Shown: one piece after another, positions 4,175 through 13,234 of the stretch
Layout: each line of letters begins with the position of its first letter
Numbering within the stretch: the stretch's first letter is position 1
Virus record (IMG/VR): IMGVR_UViG_2526164632_000028
From: a virus
Lineage: Duplodnaviria; Heunggongvirae; Uroviricota; Caudoviricetes
Direction: 5' to 3' (one strand)
DNA length: 15,265 nucleotides
Translations under genes and position numbers: made by a program
Notes under the pieces: generated by a model
What the model saw: only the letters and a program-made list of their open reading frames with translations
What the model was told of the DNA's origin: nothing
Databases searched by the model: none

Positions 4175-4359
4175 TGCCAGCATCCTTTTTGTATCGGACG
4201 TAAACGGGCCAGCATTGAAAGAATGCATATTTTATTTAATAACTCCCGTTCGTGTTTTCTCTTGTTAATGGCATCTTCAGTAAATACAGGGTTACTGATA
4301 GTGACACCAATTTCAAAACAACCTTCAGACGTATTAACGTTTGGTAATAACGTTTCCAT
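4171..4359 (-). CDS. dicB: cell division inhibitor DicB
   Basis: 62-aa ORF METLLPNVNTSEGCFEIGVTISNPVFTEDAINKRKHERELLNKICILSMLARLRPIQKGCWQ, matching E. coli DicB as I remember it along nearly its whole length. SD GAGGA upstream of ATG at 4359. DicF-like sequence lies immediately upstream on the same strand. Confidence 0.85.
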   Translation of the reverse strand: METLLPNVNTSEGCFEIGVTISNPVFTEDAINKRKHERELLNKICILSMLARLRPIQKGCWQ

Positions 4360-4528
4360 TATCGCGTCCTCAACAATGAATTTTGTGATGCGGTGCCTGG
4401 TGCCTCCAGGTGACGTTAACCAGTTAACAATTAACGCCGGATACAGAGAATCCACCCATAACACTGTTTTTGGTTTTAACTGTTCCGCGTGCGCTCAGCC
4501 GCATTCACCACATCACAAAATTCACTTT

Positions 4529-4586
4529 AAAAAGGGCGGCAGAGCAGTCACGGAGTAAAACTGATACCGCCAAACGTCACCAGAAA
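4529..4586 (-). ncRNA. dicF: DicF small regulatory RNA (ftsZ-targeting sRNA processed from the dicB operon transcript)
   Basis: Minus-strand sequence TTTCTGGTGACGTTTGGCGGTATCAGTTTTACTCCGTGACTGCTCTGCCGCCCTTTTT matches my recollection of E. coli DicF, ending in a GC stem plus U-tract. Located just upstream of dicB as in Qin. Exact ends are uncertain by a few nt. Confidence 0.7.
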
Positions 4587-7330: not shown

Positions 7331-7352
7331 AAGCACGGTGTTCGGGGGTTTT

Positions 7353-8315
7353 ATGAGCAGCAAGCTTCATGGTCTTGTCTGGGAAGGGTGCGCCTTCACC
7401 GGCATGATCTTATCCAGGGTGGCGGTTATGGCCCGTCTTGCAGACTACAGCAATGACGAGGGCGTGTCATGGCCTGCCATTGAAACTATCCGGCGTCAGA
7501 TCGGTGCAAGAAGTGAATCCACAGTGAAATCGGCTATTGCAGAACTGGCGAAAGAGGGCTGGCTGACGAAGGAAGAGCGTAAGGTCGGTGGGCGTAATGT
7601 AAGCAATATCTATCGGCTTAATGTGGAAAAACTCGAAGCAGCTGCGGCGGCGGCGCGTGAGTCATATAAACCGAAAAGAAAAATTAGCCCGGCAAAAAAT
7701 GACCCGTTAACAGTTGACCCGTCAAATATTGACCCCTCAACGGTTGACCCGTCAAATTTTGATGGATCAACTGTTGATAAAAAACTGCCGATTAGGGGGG
7801 CGATGATTGACCCCGATCCGTCAGTATTAAAACCTGATCCGTCAGATAAAAGATCTTCTTGTCCGGACGCTTCGCAACCGGACCCGCAGACGGCTGAACA
7901 GGATTTTTTAACCCGACACCCTGACGCGGTTGTGTTCAGTGCGAAAAAACGCCAGTGGGGAAGTCAGGAAGATTTGGTGTGCGCACAGTGGATCTGGGGA
8001 CGAATCGTGAGTCTTTACGAGCAGGCGGCCAGCGATGATGGCGAGATCACTAGACCGAAAGAACCCAACTGGACAGCATGGGCCAATGACGTTCGCACAA
8101 TGCGGATGCTGGATGGCAGAACTCACAGACAAATTTGTGAAATGTTTGGGCGTCTCCAGCGGGATTCGTTCTGGGTAAAAAACATCATGAGTCCGGCAAA
8201 ACTCCGGGAAAAATGGGATGAACTGGTTATCCGCCTGGGGCGTTCGCCTGCGCAGCGTTGCGTGAATCACATTTCTGAACCGGACACTGAAATACCGCCG
8301 GGATTCAGGGGGTGA
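7353..8315 (+). CDS. replication initiator (O-like): N-terminal winged-helix DNA-binding domain, internal iteron-encoded DPxxV repeats, DnaT-like C-terminal domain
   Basis: ATG 7353 with GGGGG SD (tabulated ORF starts at GTG 7338). N-terminal ...SWPAIETIRRQIGARSESTVKSAIAELAKEGWL... C-terminus ...VNHISEPDTEIPPGFRG resembles the E. coli DnaT C-terminus (...SEPDSQIPPGFRG, from memory). Followed immediately by the DnaC-like gene. Confidence 0.8.
   Translation: MSSKLHGLVWEGCAFTGMILSRVAVMARLADYSNDEGVSWPAIETIRRQIGARSESTVKSAIAELAKEGWLTKEERKVGGRNVSNIYRLNVEKLEAAAAAARESYKPKRKISPAKNDPLTVDPSNIDPSTVDPSNFDGSTVDKKLPIRGAMIDPDPSVLKPDPSDKRSSCPDASQPDPQTAEQDFLTRHPDAVVFSAKKRQWGSQEDLVCAQWIWGRIVSLYEQAASDDGEITRPKEPNWTAWANDVRTMRMLDGRTHRQICEMFGRLQRDSFWVKNIMSPAKLREKWDELVIRLGRSPAQRCVNHISEPDTEIPPGFRG
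7699..7785. repeat. iteron array (putative replication origin) inside the initiator gene
   Basis: Six units with exact 15-bp period starting at 7699, 7714, 7729, 7744, 7759 and 7774; core TTGACCCGTCAA is itself palindromic (TTGAC/GTCAA). Followed by A-rich GATAAAAAACTG. Encodes the peptide repeat DPLTV-DPSNI-DPSTV-DPSNF-DGSTV. Confidence 0.6.
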
Positions 8316-8321
8316 CGTGTC

Positions 8322-9068
8322 ATGAAAAACATTGCGGCAGTTGGGGTTCTTGAACGTATTCGCAGACTTGCACCACAGGGGTCGGTTCCACCGTACCGGA
8401 CGGTGGAGGAGTGGCGGGAATGGCAACTTGCTGAAGGACGAAAACGCAGCGAGGAGATTAACCGCCAGAATCGCCAGTTGCGGGTGGAAAAAATCCTGAA
8501 TCGTTCGGGCATCCAGCCTCTGCACAGCAAATGCTCGTTTGCAAATTATCAGGTGCAGAACGACGGGCAAAAATACGCGCTGAGCCAGGCCAAATCCATA
8601 GCTGACGAACTGATGACCGGGTGCACGAATTTTGTGTTCAGCGGTAAAACCGGCACCGGGAAAAATCACCTTGCAGCGGCGATGGGCAACCGGCTGATGG
8701 TGAAGGGGCGCAGCGTGATTATCGTCACCGTGTCTGACGTCATGAGCGTGTTGCATGACAGCTACGACAACGGCAAATCCGGGGAAAAATTTTTACAGGA
8801 GCTTTGCGGGGTTGATTTGCTGGTCCTGGATGAAATAGGCGTTCAGCGGGAGACGAAAAACGAGCAGGTGGTATTGCACCAGATAATTGATCGCCGGACA
8901 GCATCACTGTGCAGTGTCGGGATGTTAACAAACCTGAATCATGCCGCAATGAGTACGCTTCTTGGTGAGAGGATTATGGACCGCATGACCATGAACGGTG
9001 GTCGATGGGTGACGTTTAACTGGGATAGCTGGCGTCCAAATGTCAGCAATATGAGGGTTGTGAAGTAA
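8322..9068 (+). CDS. dnaC: DnaC-like replicative helicase loader (AAA+ ATPase)
   Basis: 248-aa ORF. Walker A FSGKTGTGKNHLAAAMG and Walker B DLLVLDEIGVQ; collinear with E. coli DnaC from N-terminus (MKN...) to C-terminus (...WVTFNWDSWR). Start is 7 nt after the initiator stop. Confidence 0.9.
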   Translation: MKNIAAVGVLERIRRLAPQGSVPPYRTVEEWREWQLAEGRKRSEEINRQNRQLRVEKILNRSGIQPLHSKCSFANYQVQNDGQKYALSQAKSIADELMTGCTNFVFSGKTGTGKNHLAAAMGNRLMVKGRSVIIVTVSDVMSVLHDSYDNGKSGEKFLQELCGVDLLVLDEIGVQRETKNEQVVLHQIIDRRTASLCSVGMLTNLNHAAMSTLLGERIMDRMTMNGGRWVTFNWDSWRPNVSNMRVVK

Positions 9069-9089
9069 TTTTGTCCGGAGGAAATTTTA

Positions 9090-9860
9090 ATGGAAACCGT
9101 ATCTGACGCACTGAAAGCACTGAAAAAAGCCTCTTCACATGTGGTGGCAGCTCGCCTTGGAATCAGTCGTGAAGAGGCTGTCAACGAGCTGTGGGAACTC
9201 AAAAGAAATGGCGTCGTTGATAAAACTGGTCACACCTGGTTTCTGGCTGGCGAAGGTGAATCCCGGGTAACCGAAGAGCGGCCAGTAAAATCTGAAGCAC
9301 AGGATATGCTGACCGGGGAGGTCGAACAAAAAGTTACCGCAGACATGATGATTGAGTTTATCGGTCAGGATGGGGCTAAAACGTGTGAGGAACTGGCGGG
9401 TAAGTTCGGTGTCAGTACTCGCAAGGTTGCTTCCACGCTGGCGGTGGTAACCGCAACGGGGCGGCTGGCACGCGTTAATCAGAACGGTAAATTTCGTTAC
9501 TGCATGCCGGGCGATAATTTACCAGCAGAGCCGAAAGCCGCGCTGGTAACGGAAAGTGATGGTAAGGCCTTTCCTCAGCCAGCAGGTGCTGCGTTACCAG
9601 GCCGGGAAGCCGCAACACAGGAAGAAATTAAAACAGAAACTGTGGCGGACATTGTGCAGTCGTTGCCATCGTTTACCGAAACGCAAGCAGATGAGCTGAT
9701 TTTTCCGTCCCTGCGCAGGGCAAACCTGGCGCTGCGCAGGGCGAAAAGTGATGTTCAGAAGTGGGAGCGAGTCTGCGCCGCGCTGCGGGAGCTGAACAAG
9801 CACCGGGATATTGTTCGACAGATTACTGATTCTTCCCGCCGTGTTGTATCGGAAAAGTGA
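9090..9860 (+). CDS. hypothetical protein with two winged-helix-like repeats
   Basis: 256-aa ORF; ATG 9090 with SD GGAGG. Internal repeats AARLGISREEAVNELWELKRNGVVDKTGHTWFL and AGKFGVSTRKVASTLAVVTATGRLARVNQNGKFRYCM. No homology recognised. Confidence 0.65.
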   Translation: METVSDALKALKKASSHVVAARLGISREEAVNELWELKRNGVVDKTGHTWFLAGEGESRVTEERPVKSEAQDMLTGEVEQKVTADMMIEFIGQDGAKTCEELAGKFGVSTRKVASTLAVVTATGRLARVNQNGKFRYCMPGDNLPAEPKAALVTESDGKAFPQPAGAALPGREAATQEEIKTETVADIVQSLPSFTETQADELIFPSLRRANLALRRAKSDVQKWERVCAALRELNKHRDIVRQITDSSRRVVSEK

Positions 9861-9875
9861 TTGCCGGAGGCGCTT

Positions 9876-10298
9876 ATGGCAAAAGTATTTACACAAGAAG
9901 AGCGGGAAAAAATTAAAGGGCAGGTTGTTGAGCTAGTACGCCGGAGTGGGCGCGAGACGTTACGGCAACTGGAAGCCAAGACAGGTGCGACAAGATATCT
10001 GATGAGTGTTCTCGCCAGAGAGCTGGTTGCCAGTGGCGATGTATACAACTCTGGTTACGGGTTATTCCCGTCTGAACAGGCGCGTAAGGACTGGCAAAAC
10101 GCCCGCAAAAAACTCTCAAGGGCAAATCTGAAGAAACCATCTGTGGTTGATCCTGACCTTATCTGGCCATTACCAGACGGAGAAATACGCCGCTACGACA
10201 GGCGTCAAAACATAATCTGTAGCGAGTGCCGGAAGAGCGAAGCTATGCAGCGTGTACTGGCTTTCTATCAGGGTAATTTTCAGAAGGTGCTGTTGTGA
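9876..10298 (+). CDS. hypothetical protein with one winged-helix-like module related to the upstream gene
   Basis: ATG 9876 with SD GGAGG at 9866-9870 (tabulated ORF starts at TTG 9861). Motif VELVRRSGRETLRQLEAKTGATRYLMSVLARELVASGDV resembles the repeats in 9090-9860. C-terminal CSEC motif. Confidence 0.6.
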   Translation: MAKVFTQEEREKIKGQVVELVRRSGRETLRQLEAKTGATRYLMSVLARELVASGDVYNSGYGLFPSEQARKDWQNARKKLSRANLKKPSVVDPDLIWPLPDGEIRRYDRRQNIICSECRKSEAMQRVLAFYQGNFQKVLL

Positions 10299-10332
10299 GC
10301 CAAATTAACAATCGGAACTTCGTGAAGAGAAA

Positions 10333-10403
10333 GCATAATCCAAATCTGAATAATTAAGTTCAGCACTGTAAATAAAATTTAATCCTTAACTGGAGGTATA
10401 TCT
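10333..10403 (+). repeat. module-junction repeat, copy 1 (second copy at 11600-11668)
   Basis: AATCCAAATCTGAATAATTAAGTTCAGCACTGTAAATAAAATTTAATCCTTAACTGGAGGTATATCT versus AATCCAGAACTGAATAATTAAATTTAGCTCTGTTAAAAATTTAATCCTTAACCGGAGGGATTTCT, about 85% identical by eye. Copy 1 ends at the SD and ATG of ORF 10404. Confidence 0.55.
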
Positions 10404-10616
10404 ATGTCAAATACACAGAAAATTATTAACACTGAAAAATATAACGAGTGGGTGAAAAAATTCTCTGAGCAGATTTTTAAAATTACTGGCGACGAGAATG
10501 TGGCAAAAAATGAATTGGAACCGTGGACACCTGAAGGAAACGCACCAAATTATTGCTGGTGGGAGGTTGATCCGGTTGATGCTGCAAATGAAGCCATGAG
10601 TTACCACAACGATTAA
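10404..10616 (+). CDS. hypothetical small protein (70 aa), first gene of the cargo island
   Basis: ATG 10404 with SD GGAGG 7 nt upstream; MSNTQKIINTEKYNEWVKKFSEQIF...; AT-rich codon usage distinct from flanking modules. Confidence 0.55.
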   Translation: MSNTQKIINTEKYNEWVKKFSEQIFKITGDENVAKNELEPWTPEGNAPNYCWWEVDPVDAANEAMSYHND

Positions 10617-10621
10617 TGTCG

Positions 10622-10648
10622 GGAGGCCGCCCGAAAGGGCGGTAAGAA
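10622..10648 (+). promoter_or_regulatory. SD-plus-hairpin translation leader (GGAGG followed by a CCGCCC-GAAA-GGGCGG stem-loop) preceding ORF 10649
   Basis: GGAGG at 10622-10626; 6-bp GC stem with GAAA tetraloop at 10627-10642; ATG at 10649. No U-tract, so not a terminator. Near-identical 23-nt copy at 11686-11708. Confidence 0.5.
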
Positions 10649-10867
10649 ATGACTACATTATTCAGAAAAGAATATCCGCAAAAAAGTAGGGCGACAGAAT
10701 TTTTGTTTCTCATTCTGTTTATCGTATTGATGATACCGATATCCCCTCTAATTTTTGTCTGGGCAATCGGGAAAATAATTGAGCCAGTTACTGAATTGTA
10801 TAACGACGTGGTATGGGCGTCATTCAACACACTGCACAATAAAATTAATCCGTATAAGGAAAACTGA
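10649..10867 (+). CDS. hypothetical small membrane protein (72 aa, one predicted transmembrane helix)
   Basis: MTTLFRKEYPQKSRATEFLFLILFIVLMIPISPLIFVWAIGKII...; hydrophobic stretch of about 25 aa after a basic N-terminus; preceded by the SD-hairpin leader. Confidence 0.55.
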   Translation: MTTLFRKEYPQKSRATEFLFLILFIVLMIPISPLIFVWAIGKIIEPVTELYNDVVWASFNTLHNKINPYKEN

Positions 10868-10868
10868 T

Positions 10869-11132
10869 ATGGCAACTTTGACAAAAAAAGAACGGGCATG
10901 GTTGAACGAATTACAGGAAGTTCTTGATCGCTGTCCATCACCGAAAAAAATTGGCTTTTACACCATTGGCGATAAAAGCATTTACCTGTATGACCTACGC
11001 CGCATGGATGAAATCATGGAGGCTCTTGATAATCGTTCGTCGATGGATTGGTGTGTTGCTGTTCATGATATGAATGCAGGGTTTGATGAAAAGATTTTGT
11101 TCCCCTCATCAGTTGAAAGCACTGCGGGTTAA
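10869..11132 (+). CDS. hypothetical protein (87 aa)
   Basis: ATG 10869 one nt after the upstream stop, with SD AAGGAAAA; MATLTKKERAWLNELQEVLDRCPSPKKIGFYTIGDKSIYLYDLRRMDEIMEALD... Confidence 0.55.
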   Translation: MATLTKKERAWLNELQEVLDRCPSPKKIGFYTIGDKSIYLYDLRRMDEIMEALDNRSSMDWCVAVHDMNAGFDEKILFPSSVESTAG

Positions 11133-11142
11133 GGAGTAACAC

Positions 11143-11286
11143 ATGACCACTATTACCAAAGAACGTATTGAATTGTTCATTAAATTTTCAGGAGGCGGTA
11201 CTGTGAGTGAAATTAGCTATCAGGCTTCAATTACCGCTGGCATTCGCATCAAAGGAGAGGAGCATGGAAATAAAACCAGAGGATGA
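11143..11286 (+). CDS. hypothetical small protein (47 aa), overlapping the next gene
   Basis: ATG 11143 with strong SD AAGGAG 7 nt upstream; MTTITKERIELFIKFSGGGTVSEISYQASITAGIRIKGEEHGNKTRG. Overlaps ORF 11264 by 23 nt in a different frame. Confidence 0.4.
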   Translation: MTTITKERIELFIKFSGGGTVSEISYQASITAGIRIKGEEHGNKTRG

Positions 11287-11620
11287 GTTAAGCAATATCG
11301 TTTTATTTCCGGTAAAAGAGGATGACCCTCGTAATCAGGTTAATTTTCTTTATGAGCCATCGGAAAGACCATATTGTCATCACGCCTCTGTCCGGGTTGA
11401 CGAAAAAGAGCGTCAGGTCCGCTGTAAAATCTGCGGTGCAGTTGTGGAACCATTTGACTGGATGCTCTCTGTGGCGAAAAGAGAAACCAGACTGGCAGAT
11501 GATGTAAGGCTCTTGCGTCAGGAGGAGCGGGAAAGGCGAAAAAATATAGAAAAGCTAATTCAGATTGAGCGTAACGCGAAAGCGCGGATACGCAGGGCGA
11601 CAAAATCCAGAACTGAATAA
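11264..11620 (+). CDS. hypothetical zinc-finger-like protein with basic coiled-coil C-terminus (118 aa)
   Basis: ATG 11264 with SD AAGGAG (alternative GTG start at 11207). Motif YCHHASVRVDEKERQVRCKICG, then an Arg/Lys/Glu-rich tail LLRQEERERRKNIEKLIQIERNAKARIRRATKSRTE. Confidence 0.55.
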   Translation: MEIKPEDELSNIVLFPVKEDDPRNQVNFLYEPSERPYCHHASVRVDEKERQVRCKICGAVVEPFDWMLSVAKRETRLADDVRLLRQEERERRKNIEKLIQIERNAKARIRRATKSRTE

Positions 11621-11668
11621 TTAAATTTAGCTCTGTTAAAAATTTAATCCTTAACCGGAGGGATTTCT
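11600..11668 (+). repeat. module-junction repeat, copy 2
   Basis: See copy 1 at 10333-10403. Copy 2 begins within the last codons of ORF 11264-11620 and is followed by the second SD-hairpin leader. Confidence 0.55.
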
Positions 11669-11684
11669 GCACCCTCAGAACATC

Positions 11685-11713
11685 AGGAGGCCGCCCGAAA
11701 GGGCGGTAGTTAA
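11685..11713 (+). promoter_or_regulatory. SD-plus-hairpin translation leader, copy 2, preceding ORF 11714
   Basis: AGGAGG at 11685-11690; CCGCCC-GAAA-GGGCGG at 11691-11706; ATG at 11714. Confidence 0.5.
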
Positions 11714-11896
11714 ATGCGAAAGTTTAAAATAATTATTGAAACGGGAATAGCCGGTGGAGATTTCGAGGATGAATTCGAAGTGGATGATGATGCGACGCCT
11801 GATGAAATACATGACGAAGCAAAAGATATTTTCTTTAACTACTGCAATTACTCATATCACGAAATAAAAGACGAAGAGGAAGAACAAAATGGCTGA
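11714..11896 (+). CDS. hypothetical highly acidic small protein (60 aa)
   Basis: MRKFKIIIETGIAGGDFEDEFEVDDDATPDEIHDEAKDIFFNYCNYSYHEIKDEEEEQNG, Asp/Glu-rich; preceded by the SD-hairpin leader. Confidence 0.5.
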   Translation: MRKFKIIIETGIAGGDFEDEFEVDDDATPDEIHDEAKDIFFNYCNYSYHEIKDEEEEQNG

Positions 11897-12065
11897 TTTT
11901 GGTTCAACTAAATACAACGTCGGTTTTGAAGAATGGCATGAACTGTTAATGGACTATGCAGAGTTACGTGGTGGCAGTGCTGCTGATGCTGAAGCATGGC
12001 GTGATGATTATGAAGCAGGAAAAACTCCGGTCGAAGCATATTGTGATGAGTGGGGCGATGAATGA
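11889..12065 (+). CDS. hypothetical acidic small protein (58 aa)
   Basis: ATG 11889 lies 5 nt before the upstream stop (ATGGCTGA); MADFGSTKYNVGFEEWHELLMDYAELRGGSAADAEAWRDDYEAGKTPVEAYCDEWGDE. Confidence 0.5.
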   Translation: MADFGSTKYNVGFEEWHELLMDYAELRGGSAADAEAWRDDYEAGKTPVEAYCDEWGDE

Positions 12066-12377
12066 GCGAGGTTAATTATCAGGAAGGGCATGAAACGGCG
12101 GGGCAAGCAAAAACAGTGGCATGGCGATATCGCTACGTGAAAAAAAGGCGTTACGGACTTTCAGGGGAAGTAGTGGTCTGGTGACTGGAAATATGTACCG
12201 AAAAAAGAGGATTGTAACGACAGGCCGAACTATGAAATTCAGGCCTTATTCACTGCCCCGCCAGTCCCGGTTACATCAGAAGAACTGGTTAAAGCTGTGC
12301 ACTTTTATGAACAACTAAAATGCGAAAATCCACCAGCATCCGGAAACCTGATTACAGATTCCCAGATAAGGCAATGA
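12062..12377 (+). pseudogene. hypothetical gene apparently split by a +1 frameshift near 12174-12184
   Basis: ATG 12062 overlaps the upstream stop (ATGA); frame gives MSEVNYQEGHETAGQAKTVAWRYRYVKKRRYGLSGEVVVW then TGA at 12182-12184. The +1 frame is open from 12174 to 12377 with protein-like content (...DWKYVPKKEDCNDRPNYEIQALFTAPPVPVTSEELVKAVHFYEQLKCENPPASGNLITDSQIRQ) but no start codon. Confidence 0.35.
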
Positions 12378-12547
12378 GCTACCTGGCGCAGAACGGGCTG
12401 ATAAGTATGGGGAATGTTTTACGATGAATATTTAGACTAAAGAGTTTGTAACGCTATGTAAGTGATTTTTTCTGGTTTAGATATTTATATGTCCGGCTAA
12501 ATTGAGGTGTGTTTAAATGTTATTGCACATTGATTGTAGGGGGAATA

Positions 12548-12685
12548 ATGAAAAACGCATTGCAGTTTTTGTTTGTTGCGTTCTGGTTGTTCGCATCATG
12601 TATGCCCATCATCTTCACAGCAAGGTATATGGAAAAAGTTGATGTTTTGATATTAATGTTTGGACATATAAATGCCCTTTTTTAG
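12548..12685 (+). CDS. hypothetical 45-aa hydrophobic peptide (candidate small membrane protein or toxin)
   Basis: ATG 12548 with SD AGGGGG 5-8 nt upstream; MKNALQFLFVAFWLFASCMPIIFTARYMEKVDVLILMFGHINALF. Below the 60-aa cutoff of the ORF table. In an AT-rich intergenic stretch upstream of the hok locus. Confidence 0.4.
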   Translation: MKNALQFLFVAFWLFASCMPIIFTARYMEKVDVLILMFGHINALF

Positions 12686-12928
12686 GGGTGTTCATGGCGG
12701 TCATGTGCATTGAATACTGGCGGTAAATACAGCGAACGCCATTGGTTTAGTTGGATATTTACTGTGCCGGACAAAAACGGTTTGCGGGGAAATCTTAGTT
12801 AAGTAGAATGACTGCGGGTGCTTGAGGCTATCTGTCTCAGGCATGAACACCAAAAGGCAGATAGAGAAAAGCCCCAGTTAACATTACGCGTCCTGCAAGA
12901 CGCTTAACATTAATCTGAGGCCATATCT

Positions 12929-12988
12929 ATGCGACACATAGAGATTAGCCTCTTACGGACCGAAAGGTCAAGGAGAAGCAGGCTATGA
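12929..12988 (+). CDS. mok-like leader ORF coupled to hok (19 codons)
   Basis: ATG 12929 with SD GAGG 9 nt upstream; MRHIEISLLRTERSRRSRL; its TGA (12986-12988) overlaps the hok ATG (12985-12987). Confidence 0.4.
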   Translation: MRHIEISLLRTERSRRSRL

Positions 12989-13140
12989 AGCAGCAAAAGG
13001 CGATGTTAATCGCCCTGATCGTCATCTGTTTAACCGTCATAGTGACGGCACTGGTAACGAGGAAAGACCTCTGCGAGGTACGAATCCGAACCGGCCAGAC
13101 GGAGGTCGCTGTCTTCACAGCTTACGAACCTGAGGAGTAA
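12985..13140 (+). CDS. hokD: Hok-family type I toxin (HokD/RelF-like)
   Basis: 51-aa ORF MKQQKAMLIALIVICLTVIVTALVTRKDLCEVRIRTGQTEVAVFTAYEPEE, recognised as Hok/Gef family. Followed by a 9-bp-stem GAAA hairpin (13148-13169) and a terminator. In Qin, hokD lies next to rem and ydfU, as here. Confidence 0.85.
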   Translation: MKQQKAMLIALIVICLTVIVTALVTRKDLCEVRIRTGQTEVAVFTAYEPEE

Positions 13141-13210
13141 GAGACCAGGCGAGGGAGAAATCCCTCGCCACCTCTGATGAGTCAGGCATCCTCAACGCAC
13201 CCGCACTTAA

Positions 13211-13234
13211 CCCGCTTCGGCGGGTTTTGTTTTT
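13211..13234 (+). terminator. rho-independent terminator of the hok transcript
   Basis: CCCGC-ttcg-GCGGG stem-loop followed by TTTTGTTTTT. Confidence 0.65.

Follow-up and report, generated by a model that had tools for sequence, protein, structure and literature searches.

The window analysed here, a 15,265-nt stretch of viral DNA (IMG/VR record IMGVR_UViG_2526164632_000028), is 100% identical to a prophage adjoining potC. The prophage order is int-xis-exo...cI-cro-ydaT-O-P-DUF1627-DUF977-(island)-hokD-DUF968-rusA. The island (positions 10299–12377) has a GC content of 0.418, compared with 0.520 in the replication module (7338–10298) and 0.527 in the hok to rusA segment, and all of its annotated genes lie on the plus strand. 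An earlier, sequence-only reading had described both features, and we agree that this is accessory DNA of unknown function, placed after the replication genes and before the nin-equivalent hok/DUF968/rusA segment. That reading counted about nine ORFs. Small plus-strand ORFs are indeed present, but the actual count is seven ORFs and one pseudogene. The island contains six conserved genes of unknown function (A, B, C, E, F, and G), a chimeric ORF (D), and a pseudogene (H), together with duplicated short elements (Table 1). Two of the ORFs originally counted, of 40 aa (12062–12184) and 65 aa (12121–12318), are out-of-frame pieces of the decayed gene H.

Table 1. Genes, relics, and repeated elements in and around the island, in order of position
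Feature	Coordinates	Strand	Description
Ea22-start box, copy 1	10275..10313	+	Last DUF977 codons and GTG start of a collapsed Ea22-like ORF (VSQINN...)
20-codon relic ORF	10296..10358	+	Ea22-like start fused to a relic of the gene E 3′ end
j, copy 1	10334..10403	+	E 3′-end relic, small hairpin within an AT-rich spacer, gene A SD (GGAGG)
Gene A	10404..10616	+	70 aa, acidic (pI 4.5), PHROG 4659, PGAP CDS WP_000072553
h, copy 1	10619..10644	+	SD GGGAGG (10621–10626), GNRA-loop hairpin (10627–10642), 6 nt to the B ATG at 10649
Gene B	10649..10867	+	72 aa, DUF4014, PHROG 1832
Gene C	10869..11132	+	87 aa, PHROG 1714
ORF D	11143..11286	+	47 aa, chimeric junction ORF
Ea22-start box, copy 2	11183..11221	+	Inside D; direct repeat D2
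Gene E	11264..11620	+	118 aa, putative zinc ribbon and long helix, PHROG 1621
j, copy 2	11601..11668	+	Starts within the last E codons; no gene A; 14 nt on to h
h, copy 2	11683..11708	+	SD AGGAGG (11685–11690), hairpin (11691–11706), 7 nt to the F ATG at 11714
Gene F	11714..11896	+	60 aa, DUF7167, 20 D+E, pI 4.05, PHROG 1997
Gene G	11889..12065	+	58 aa, pI 4.05; start overlaps the F stop
Pseudogene H	12062..12427	+	Decayed 171-aa PHROG 660 gene; extends beyond the island end at 12377

The six conserved genes are intact and under purifying selection, with pN/pS values that range from 0.08 to 0.26: 0.21 for A (14 distinct alleles), 0.26 for B (25 alleles), 0.08 for E, and 0.17 for both F and G. 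Every island protein has an exact match to known proteins (each on about 600 to 1000 or more contigs) and belongs to a PHROG or Pfam DUF family already catalogued, so the description of the island as undescribed does not hold for its sequence. Gene A matches PHROG 4659 (E = 4.8e-51, profile search), C matches PHROG 1714 (E = 9.5e-51), and E matches PHROG 1621 (E = 1.8e-56). Gene B matches Pfam DUF4014 (PF13198; E = 5.3e-26, 91.3 bits against a cutoff of 23.2) over positions 1–72 of 72, and F matches DUF7167 (PF23768; E = 7.9e-15, 55.1 bits against a cutoff of 24.4). Gene G matches only the C-terminal part of the PHROG 519 profile (E = 5.5e-22); its family is narrow (Escherichia, Enterobacter, and Salmonella) and without domain fusions. 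Intact 171-aa versions of H occur in other loci (L010, L013, L017, and others) and match PHROG 660 (E = 4.2e-75). The window copy, labelled ‘frameshifted; internal stop’ by PGAP, has a run of seven A residues where intact copies have six, an in-frame TAG, and a deletion of ∼183 nt. PHROGs 4659, 1714, 1621, 519, and 660 are all annotated as ‘unknown function’.

Gene spacing is tight. D and E overlap by 23 nt, F and G by 8 nt, and G and H by 4 nt, while B and C are separated by 1 nt and C and D by 10 nt. As had been proposed, the genes have their own SD or stop-start coupling: a strong SD or translational coupling is found at each of A, B, C, E, F, and G. It is extremely improbable that the small ORFs are mostly spurious frames in an AT-rich spacer or in decaying prophage DNA. 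The genes are short, H is a pseudogene, D is chimeric, and relics of deleted genes are present; against this stand the translation signals, the low pN/pS with many intact alleles for all six genes, families with invariant motifs that span the Enterobacterales, and a C fold that is predicted with high confidence.

Several product descriptions made from the translations agree with our analysis. Gene B encodes a putative single-pass membrane protein with one hydrophobic span and a basic N-terminus, F and G are the two strongly acidic proteins, and the zinc-finger-like protein with a basic coiled-coil tail is E, which combines a putative Cys-His-Cys-Cys zinc ribbon with a long basic helix. The candidate ligand residues C38, H40, C54, and C57 do not vary among 32 sequences from ∼10 genera, and the basic end of the helix, NIEKLIQIERNAKARIRR, is nearly invariant. 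The AF2 model places strands at residues 43–54 and a helix at 63–117. We defined a TFIIB-type zinc ribbon by four metal ligands, two knuckles, a three-stranded ribbon, and a profile match above the gathering score. E gives a weak match to the TFIIB-type profile (PF08271) at 21.6 bits, under the cutoff of 29, and its best Foldseek match is the TFIIB N-terminal domain (E = 0.3, 27 columns only). The E profile matched 1561 representative clusters and no Pfam family. In other genera, E homologues lie just upstream of Q; in Serratia, Yersinia, and Klebsiella prophages they are found among NinE/F/G/H, RusA, and YbcO, directly before Q. The C family, like that of E, is kept across the Enterobacterales, and the predicted alpha/beta fold of C is without a known structural relative. 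Composition and predicted fold allow guesses about function: B could be a small inner-membrane protein, E could bind a conserved partner as a zinc-ribbon/coiled-coil protein, and F and G could be an acidic pair.

ORF D and the region upstream of A carry remnants of deleted genes. D consists of the first 13 codons of ‘EaA’ (a gene that follows C elsewhere), ∼8 codons from an Ea22-like start (VSEISYQA), and 16 codons from the very end of an Ea22-like gene. Residues 21–28 match the lambda Ea22 N-terminus, and residues 32–47 share 100% identity with the C-terminus of ArgO145 gp18. Block boundaries fall within D at 11183/11184 and 11235–11237, and just one distinct full-length D allele was found in 120 loci. 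D was considered as a member of the Ead/Ea22-like family, which we defined by an N-terminal region, a central coiled coil, and a C-terminal domain in one ORF. Only the N- and C-terminal codons are left and D has no Pfam match, and we therefore classify it as a relic. D was likewise rejected as an independent gene family; it is a chimera left by deletion of an Ea22-like gene. The second remnant lies upstream of the first j copy, where relics of a deleted Ea22-like/E pair are found. The 3′ part of the 10296–10358 ORF aligns to the E end in the second junction copy (repeat D1), and this relic junction is common to 15 loci. The segments 10275–10313 and 11183–11221, which form direct repeat D2, share 77% identity and hold 51 homology-block endpoints (copy 1) and 65 (at 11182–11237). 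Both copies of this Ea22-start box are recombination joints.

The ∼70-nt junction element j, also noted in the sequence-only reading, is present twice (10334–10403 and 11601–11668) with 81–90% identity (repeats D1 and D3). It follows E in other loci too, and j directly before h, as in the second copy, is the commonest context upstream of h. The linkage of E, j, and h may be simple ancestry; distant E homologues are found in nin regions without j or h. The junction copies had been taken as the heads of two sub-operons. This arrangement is without support, as neither element has a promoter-like or plus-strand terminator-like site. Because homology breakpoints concentrate in the repeats, we instead regard them as shared recombination joints.

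A related explanation is that the repeated elements are transcriptional control cassettes (promoter and/or terminator, in the manner of PeSLs) that create two separately regulated sub-operons. The elements are repeated, intergenic, contain stem-loops, and head groups of genes, and PeSLs show that repeated regulatory cassettes can mediate shuffling as well (PMC2839356). Nonetheless, we consider this very unlikely: no sigma-70-like site with at least 9/12 matches occurs in j or h, no promoter or terminator is predicted in j, no plus-strand terminator-like site is predicted in 9800–13200, and h is without a T-run. The stem-loop of j is weak, with copy 1 folding no better than shuffled sequence (z = 0.04), and the first j copy is explained as the relic of a deleted E gene. 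As a PeSL-type regulatory cassette, j/h was rejected, since a strong sigma-70 early promoter and a terminator stem-loop define such a cassette and were not found. The array would have no promoter or terminator of its own. Transcription would most likely be read-through from the rightward early operon that encodes the replication proteins, and translation would be coupled where stops and starts overlap or abut.

The second repeated element, h, is the SD-hairpin leader that had been reported before one gene in each half of the island. It is 26 nt long, 25 of the 26 positions are identical in the copies before B and F, and no such repeat is expected by chance (200 shuffles). Read from the sequence, the linear distance between SD and AUG is 22 nt at B and 23 nt at F; with the hairpin looped out it shrinks to 6 and 7 nt, respectively. 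The core hairpin has a predicted free energy of −14.4 kcal/mol and a probability of forming near 1, and leaves the SD unpaired. A split TIR is characterized by a single-stranded SD and an effective spacing of about 5–11 nt, and both island copies have these properties in the predicted fold. The GNRA-loop hairpin would thus bring the SD and AUG of B and F to within 6–7 nt, and h may act as a split ribosome-binding site that serves any ORF recombined in behind it. Copies of h are found upstream of at least six unrelated gene families, and in every copy that has a gene behind it, the hairpin sits precisely between a consensus SD and an AUG 5–14 nt downstream. All recovered copies of the hairpin are almost identical, although they came from an exact-motif search and so carry no covariation that separates selection on structure from selection on sequence. 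One natural variant has a single C-to-T change that keeps a G-U pair.

Candidate h was also considered as an intrinsic terminator and rejected: it has no T-run, and the sequence after it is TAAGAAATG or TAGTTAAATG. The same hairpin in unrelated GC-rich genomes has a longer stem and a T-run, as expected of a terminator. Overall, h appears to be a translational rather than a transcriptional signal. Alternatively, the hairpin could have no role in translation and serve in RNA processing or stability, or as a protein-binding site like boxB. It is very stable and nearly invariant, its GNRA loop resembles the GNRA-like fold of lambda boxB, and stable hairpins can block 3′ exonucleases and so stabilize upstream mRNA. 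This reading is unlikely given the constant position of the hairpin between SD and AUG. The prophage annotation lists no N-like antiterminator gene, and no boxA-like sequence is visible beside either h copy on reading the sequence by eye. Likewise, Rfam covariance models have no match inside 10299–12377; those in the window (sok, DicF, and weak ones) lie outside the island.

Together, the joints indicate how the island was probably assembled. We propose that it is a mosaic early accessory-cassette array of lambda-like prophages, built and still reshuffled by homologous recombination, for which three short sequences serve as shared sites: the Ea22-start box (the first Ea22-like codons), j (the E end and the A leader), and h. 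The window would then hold a tandem of two units, with relic-j-A-h-B-C inserted ahead of D-E-j-h-F-G-H, and each unit would have lost all but the ends of its Ea22-like gene. The gene order in 120 viral contigs follows a simple grammar, (D or Ea22-like)-E-j-(optional A)-h-(B C, F G H, or others), which is biased toward h-bearing arrangements as the loci were selected for containing h. With homology blocks defined by HSPs ≥150 nt long, 202 of 306 endpoints (36 of 63 distinct positions) fell in six elements that make up 16% of the span, with the caveat that the loci are mutually related and the endpoint counts are not independent events. Almost no endpoints fall inside gene bodies. Three loci (L003, L017, and L020) correspond to the window minus 10313–11183; they are collinear with it to 10313 and resume at 11183–11188. 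Stx phages carry the same cassettes in their pL exo-xis region, and Rac-like phages carry them between the replication genes and hok/rusA/Q.

Searches for function yielded little, in keeping with the earlier statement that no product is recognizable as a characterized nin or ea protein. Pfam has no Nin match for the island, and tblastn against lambda 20–46 kb returned nothing below E = 0.007, with the eight D residues shared with Ea22 as the one meaningful match. Island proteins had no tblastn match in phi24B from int to P and no informative match in Pfam, NCBIfam, PADLOC, or the PDB, and none of them proved related to a defence, anti-defence, or nin protein or to a solved structure. PADLOC-DB at E ≤ 0.1 gave nothing but an alignment of E to a methyltransferase model (E = 0.033, 11 bits), which is noise. 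We found no paper that names the island protein families or accessions. At a guess, these are small proteins that probably modulate host or phage, of the kind encoded in the exo-xis and nin regions.

The sequence-only reading raised a candidate accessory or anti-defence module, and it is conceivable that the genes form a coherent anti-defence (or defence) module and act together. Phage accessory and counter-defence genes typically occupy such a position, purifying selection acts on the island genes, and F is followed by G in nearly all listed arrangements. Some DNA-mimic inhibitors are small acidic proteins of a size and charge like those of F, G, and A. We nonetheless judge a coherent module distinctly unlikely. 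The cassettes assort independently in other phages: A is optional, between j and h in some loci and missing in others; B occurs with or without C; and E lies next to Q in other genera. Moreover, two of the nine proposed genes are pseudogene pieces and one is a chimera, the only PADLOC match is far below threshold, and neither the other databases nor the literature connects these families to such a role. What lies here is of a known kind, a lambdoid mosaic accessory array of catalogued families; nothing found points to a coherent anti-defence module.

Taken as a whole, the island is one more mosaic accessory region of lambda-like prophages and changes little. It does offer a clean, checkable case of gene shuffling at short conserved joints, with the same cassettes in both early operons of different phages. 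Its proteins are clearly under selection and very common in E. coli prophages, with part of the island present in more than half of complete E. coli genomes (3041 of 5426). Interaction screens would best target E and C. In addition, h is a candidate reusable split ribosome-binding site, an arrangement documented so far mainly for T4 genes 38 and 25. It is tempting to speculate further, if with some doubt, that h and j form a lambdoid, translation-level counterpart of the T4 PeSLs. Here, a portable plug-in ribosome-binding site (strong SD, GNRA hairpin, and AUG) would guarantee expression of the ORFs behind it, and the shared homology would let different prophages exchange small accessory genes between their pL (exo-xis) and pR (nin) operons. 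The cargo might include unrecognized host-takeover or counter-defence proteins, with C, E, and the F-G pair as candidates.

Several known systems resemble parts of this island. [quoted passage not shown] In the pL operon they lie downstream of ea22; similarly, the Stx phage ArgO145 holds E, A, F, G, and B between two Ea22-like genes in its early-left region, and both D and the 10296 relic carry Ea22 ends. In contrast, the island cassettes belong to the rightward operon, where the replication genes precede and hok/rusA follow them, and have no homology to orf60a, orf61, orf63, orf73, ea8.5, or ea22 of lambda or phi24B. In the genome, the island sits where lambda/P22-type phages have their nin region, after the replication genes and before rusA/Q, and both consist of short, tightly packed, translationally coupled ORFs. 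However, the island products match neither a Nin family in Pfam nor any lambda protein.

The closest parallels to h are T4 genes 38 and 25, where split initiation relies on a hairpin that cuts the distance between SD and AUG from 22 to 5 nt and from 27 to 11 nt, respectively (PMC3014915). As in T4, the SD in the island is too far from the AUG, and a hairpin that lies wholly between them would restore a suitable spacing. Whereas the T4 cases are gene-specific, the candidate leader h is reused before unrelated genes and doubles as a recombination joint. PeSLs of T4-type phages are stem-loop repeats in hyperplastic, ORFan-rich regions where recombination shuffles genes (PMC2839356, PMC4122927). 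Both j and h are likewise short, repeated intergenic motifs with a stem-loop amid gene shuffling, but a PeSL combines a promoter with a terminator, and j and h have no predicted promoter or T-run. Finally, the lambdoid modular-exchange model posits short conserved boundary sequences at gene borders (PMC3029335), and the blocks that the window shares with its relatives start and stop at just such sequences. The island does not differ from this model in principle; it is an unusually clear example, with three joints that each occur twice in a 2-kb stretch.

The window represents a lambda-like (Rac/Qin-type) E. coli prophage integrated beside potC. Several complete E. coli chromosomes match the 2079 bases of the island, the AT-rich small-ORF stretch at 10299–12377 (+), at 100% identity, and the lysogen ATCC 25922 has a copy at 98% identity. 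Of 5426 complete E. coli genomes, 3041 contain the island at least in part and 64 have the full arrangement. In the RefSeq annotation of one identical chromosome, int, xis, an 823-aa exonuclease, dicB, ydfC, and a cI-like repressor are encoded on the − strand. The + strand encodes cro, ydaT, an O-like protein, a DnaC-like ATPase, DUF1627, and DUF977, followed by the island; hokD, DUF968, rusA, and DUF1133 lie 3′ of it. Because replication genes precede the island and hokD, DUF968, and rusA follow it, it has the place that the nin region takes in lambda, with replication genes on one side and rusA/Q on the other. The AT-richness seen by the sequence-only reading is borne out: the GC fraction is 0.418, versus 0.520 in the replication module and 0.527 from hok to rusA.

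The surroundings hold further features. Beyond the island, a second stretch of AT-rich DNA (GC 0.41) is without annotated genes; it holds a hydrophobic ORF, uncalled by RefSeq, that reads MKNALQFLFVAFWLF... from an internal ATG. The antisense sRNA DicF is present in full length next to dicB, its 76.7 bits exceeding the gathering score, and an STnc100-like match beside it falls below the gathering score. Just 3′ of the island is a hok/sok type I toxin-antitoxin locus (sok RNA, 106.7 bits; HokD ORF, 51 aa), and a weak isrK-like match also scores below the gathering score. The Rfam scan gave no match within the island.

Features of the island and its surroundings (window coordinates)
Feature	Coordinates	Strand	Description
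STnc100-like match	4327–4536	−
DicF	4534–4585	−	antisense sRNA
Ea22-start box, copy 1	10275–10313		repeated joint
Relic	10296–10358		20 codons
j, copy 1	10334–10403		junction element, ∼70 nt
A	10404–10616	+	70 aa, PGAP
h, copy 1	10619–10644		SD-hairpin leader
B	10649–10867	+	72 aa, PGAP
C	10869–11132	+	87 aa, PGAP
D	11143–11286	+	47 aa, PGAP
Ea22-start box, copy 2	11183–11221		repeated joint
E	11264–11620	+	118 aa, PGAP
j, copy 2	11601–11668		junction element, ∼70 nt
h, copy 2	11683–11708		SD-hairpin leader
F	11714–11896	+	60 aa, PGAP
G	11889–12065	+	58 aa, PGAP
H	12062–12427	+	pseudogene, PGAP
Second AT-rich stretch	12378–12984
Hydrophobic ORF	12509–12685
hok/sok locus	12816–13140	+
HokD ORF	12985–13140
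isrK-like match	13149–13230

PGAP annotates eight + strand features in the island, labelled A–H from left to right. They are as closely spaced as first described, with overlaps of 23 nt (D/E), 8 nt (F/G), and 4 nt (G/H) and gaps of 1 nt (B/C) and 10 nt (C/D). The earlier count of about nine ORFs must be lowered. Two right-end ORFs of 40 and 65 aa are fragments of H rather than genes: intact relatives encode one 171-aa protein (PHROG 660), relative to which H has an A7 run for A6, an in-frame TAG, and a ∼183-nt deletion, and the 65-aa ORF is a wrong frame of H. D is a chimera. Its first 13 codons move with the C block and begin the ‘EaA’ gene 3′ of C in phage vB_EcoS-689R5, residues 21–28 (VSEISYQA) represent an Ea22-like gene start, and residues 32–47 match, at 100% identity, the end of Ea22-like gp18 in Stx phage ArgO145. 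In the similar relic 5′ of the first j copy, an Ea22-like start is joined to a remnant of the E 3′ end. Given a chimeric D and a decayed H, six real genes are left. Across the fetched loci, each of A, B, C, E, F, and G has many intact alleles, with pN/pS values of 0.21, 0.26, 0.16, 0.08, 0.17, and 0.17, respectively. Two − strand ORFs (10483–10941, 152 aa; 11340–11672, 110 aa) were rejected because they lie antisense to these genes, which are under selection.

The A-run inside H (window ∼12137–12143) varies among relatives (viral loci L005, L012, L013, L022, and others). A6 yields the intact 171-aa protein; A7, as in the window, and apparently A8, in the 84–85-aa variants, shift the frame, giving products of 40 aa and 84–85 aa. 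Frameshifted forms are common, and the variation may reflect a mutational hot spot or sequencing error, with phase variation less likely.

Both repeats reported from the sequence are indeed present twice: j at 81–90% identity, and h with 25 of 26 positions identical, where chance would be expected to give none. Cassettes mapped on 120 viral contigs, fetched for carrying the h motif, follow one grammar: an Ea22-like gene or D, then E, j, optionally A, and h, followed by B and C, by F, G, and H, by Ea22-like genes, by genes for 129/130-aa proteins, or by others. The element j comes after E because it begins inside the last codons of E, and at least six unrelated gene families stand behind h. In pairwise comparisons, homology blocks begin and end at the repeat elements. 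Six elements making up 16% of the span contain 202 of 306 block endpoints (HSPs ≥150 nt, all loci) and 36 of 63 distinct endpoint positions, counts that describe a pattern rather than a formal test, the loci being related and chosen for h. The remaining endpoints fall mostly at the B/C border or the H deletion, and almost none within gene bodies. Three relatives equal the window minus 10313–11183, a crossover between the two Ea22-start box copies.

The sequence-only reading took the repeats to head two sub-operons, yet no promoter-like or + strand terminator-like site lies in or near them. Because homology blocks start and stop at the repeats, they are recombination joints instead. In the classical model of how lambdoid mosaics arise (PMC3029335), such joints are the ‘short conserved boundary sequences’.

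The same cassettes occur in different operons. ArgO145 carries the order Ea22-like, E, A, F, G, Ea22-like, B, HNH in its early-left exo-xis region, and Rac-like phages carry these cassettes 3′ of the replication genes. Moreover, E homologues with 50–73% identity occur in classical nin regions of Serratia, Yersinia, and Klebsiella prophages, directly 5′ of the Q antiterminator, in the orders RusA-E-Q, NinG-NinH-E-x-Q, and YbcO-E-YlcG-Q. In ArgO145 (L002 5973–6338), an HNH endonuclease, not C, lies 3′ of the DUF4014 gene B; so close to a shuffling joint, such a free-standing nuclease might help cassettes to move. One family behind h is a 129-aa protein (L019, L024, L029–L031, L045, L117, L121). 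The N-terminal part of the Phage_antitermQ profile (PF06530) matches the C-terminal half of this protein at E = 6e-16, and the protein looks like a truncated or Q-like domain in an accessory cassette.

The h element has a distinctive geometry. The SD ends 22 nt 5′ of the ATG in B (GGGAGG) and 23 nt 5′ of it in F (AGGAGG), and the 16 nt 3′ of the SD form a hairpin of six GC pairs with a GAAA loop. Folding gives the 18-nt core, including a closing G-U pair, −14.4 kcal/mol, a formation probability near 1, and an unpaired SD. Looping out the hairpin leaves SD–AUG spacings of 6 nt (B) and 7 nt (F), and at all other h loci the start codon lies 5–14 nt 3′ of the hairpin. Hairpins in the split initiation regions of T4 genes 38 and 25, which shorten the spacing from 22 to 5 nt and from 27 to 11 nt, respectively, have been shown to stimulate initiation (PMC3014915). 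The geometry of h is that of these regions, and on that geometry we give a split RBS roughly an even chance. An exact-motif scan found essentially no natural hairpin variants with covariation, the copies being nearly invariant.

Other roles for h were considered and rejected. An intrinsic terminator would call for the T-run that h lacks. A boxB/nut site finds no N-like gene in the prophage annotation, nor was a boxA-like sequence noticed on reading the flanks, and an integron attC-like site is disfavoured by the short length of h and the lack of an integron integrase. The h 21-mer (GGAGGCCGCCCGAAAGGGCGG) also occurs in ten unrelated GC-rich genomes (L133–L139, L143–L145), including Chloroflexi, Xanthobacteraceae, and Acidimicrobiaceae. 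In most of these the stem is extended (..CCTC) and followed by a T-rich run, both absent from the prophage h, and there it is therefore an ordinary intrinsic terminator. Convergence on a GNRA hairpin of high stability seems to account for the shared 21-mer. L041 (∼11456–11490) carries an SD-hairpin that is nearly the same (closing GGGCGGC); it stands in a different phage setting, away from the cassette array, and the gene 3′ of it (MVTTGYNRMLMQLSEHQRRLKG...) is very different.

When all ten ORFs were scanned against Pfam, NCBIfam, PADLOC, and PHROGs, only DUFs and families of unknown function came up. Pfam matched only B (DUF4014) and F (DUF7167), NCBIfam matched no island ORF, and PADLOC gave no meaningful match (one of 11 bits, E = 0.033). 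The PHROGs families are likewise of unknown function, that of B being labelled ‘released from the phage upon host infection’. PDB sequence searches with A, C, E, F, and G found nothing below E = 0.15. As first suggested, no characterised lambdoid homologue emerged: tblastn of all ORFs against lambda 20–46 kb and phi24B 1–14 kb was negative, and the experimentally studied exo-xis regions of these two phages are without any island gene. Each of the seven protein sequences is found unchanged on some 600 to 1000 or more contigs, where its name is always ‘hypothetical’ or ‘phage protein’. Homologues of E, C, and G are all named ‘hypothetical’; fusions to known domains are limited to cases that look like frameshifted read-through from a neighbour gene, and the G family is narrow and without fusions. 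Literature searches for DUF4014, DUF7167, and six WP (RefSeq) accessions found no papers in the library searched.

Several protein features described earlier hold: B has one hydrophobic span, F and G are strongly acidic (pI 4.05 each), and E combines a zinc ribbon with a long basic helix. In E, C38, H40, C54, and C57 are invariant, the N-terminal part holds a conserved ..ELSNVVxFP.. motif, and the C-terminal helix, LRxEExxRRxNIEKLIQIERNAKARIRR, hardly varies. Its AF2 model (pLDDT 73) shows the ribbon and a single 55-residue helix, for which Foldseek against the PDB found only a TFIIB ribbon (E = 0.3), a generic zinc ribbon. The E-family profile reaches 1561 representative clusters at E ≤ 1e-3, including high-GC bacteria, and Pfam found no family in any of ten distant long relatives. 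This large family (proteins P0398–P0530) consists of zinc-ribbon and coiled-coil proteins of 100–190 aa sharing VxFP near the N-terminus, C-x-H...C-x2-C, DPFD(Y/W), and ExNAKARxR.

The best-supported reading takes the island for a mosaic, an array of early accessory cassettes open to exchange, in which two Ea22-like genes have collapsed and one gene has decayed. Transcription of the replication operon would probably read through the array. Of the proposed accessory or anti-defence module, the accessory array stands; the cassettes assort independently, which argues against one coherent module. We found no support for an anti-defence role, for which the acidic F–G pair and A would be the first candidates as single genes. 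The finding is real and its kind ordinary. Worth keeping are the reusable joint element with its putative split RBS, and E and C as very common, conserved, wholly uncharacterised prophage proteins. Among known systems, the closest are T4-type PeSL shuffling cassettes, which differ in that h has neither promoter nor terminator, the T4 split initiation regions, the nin region, and the variable ea22-distal part of the exo-xis region.
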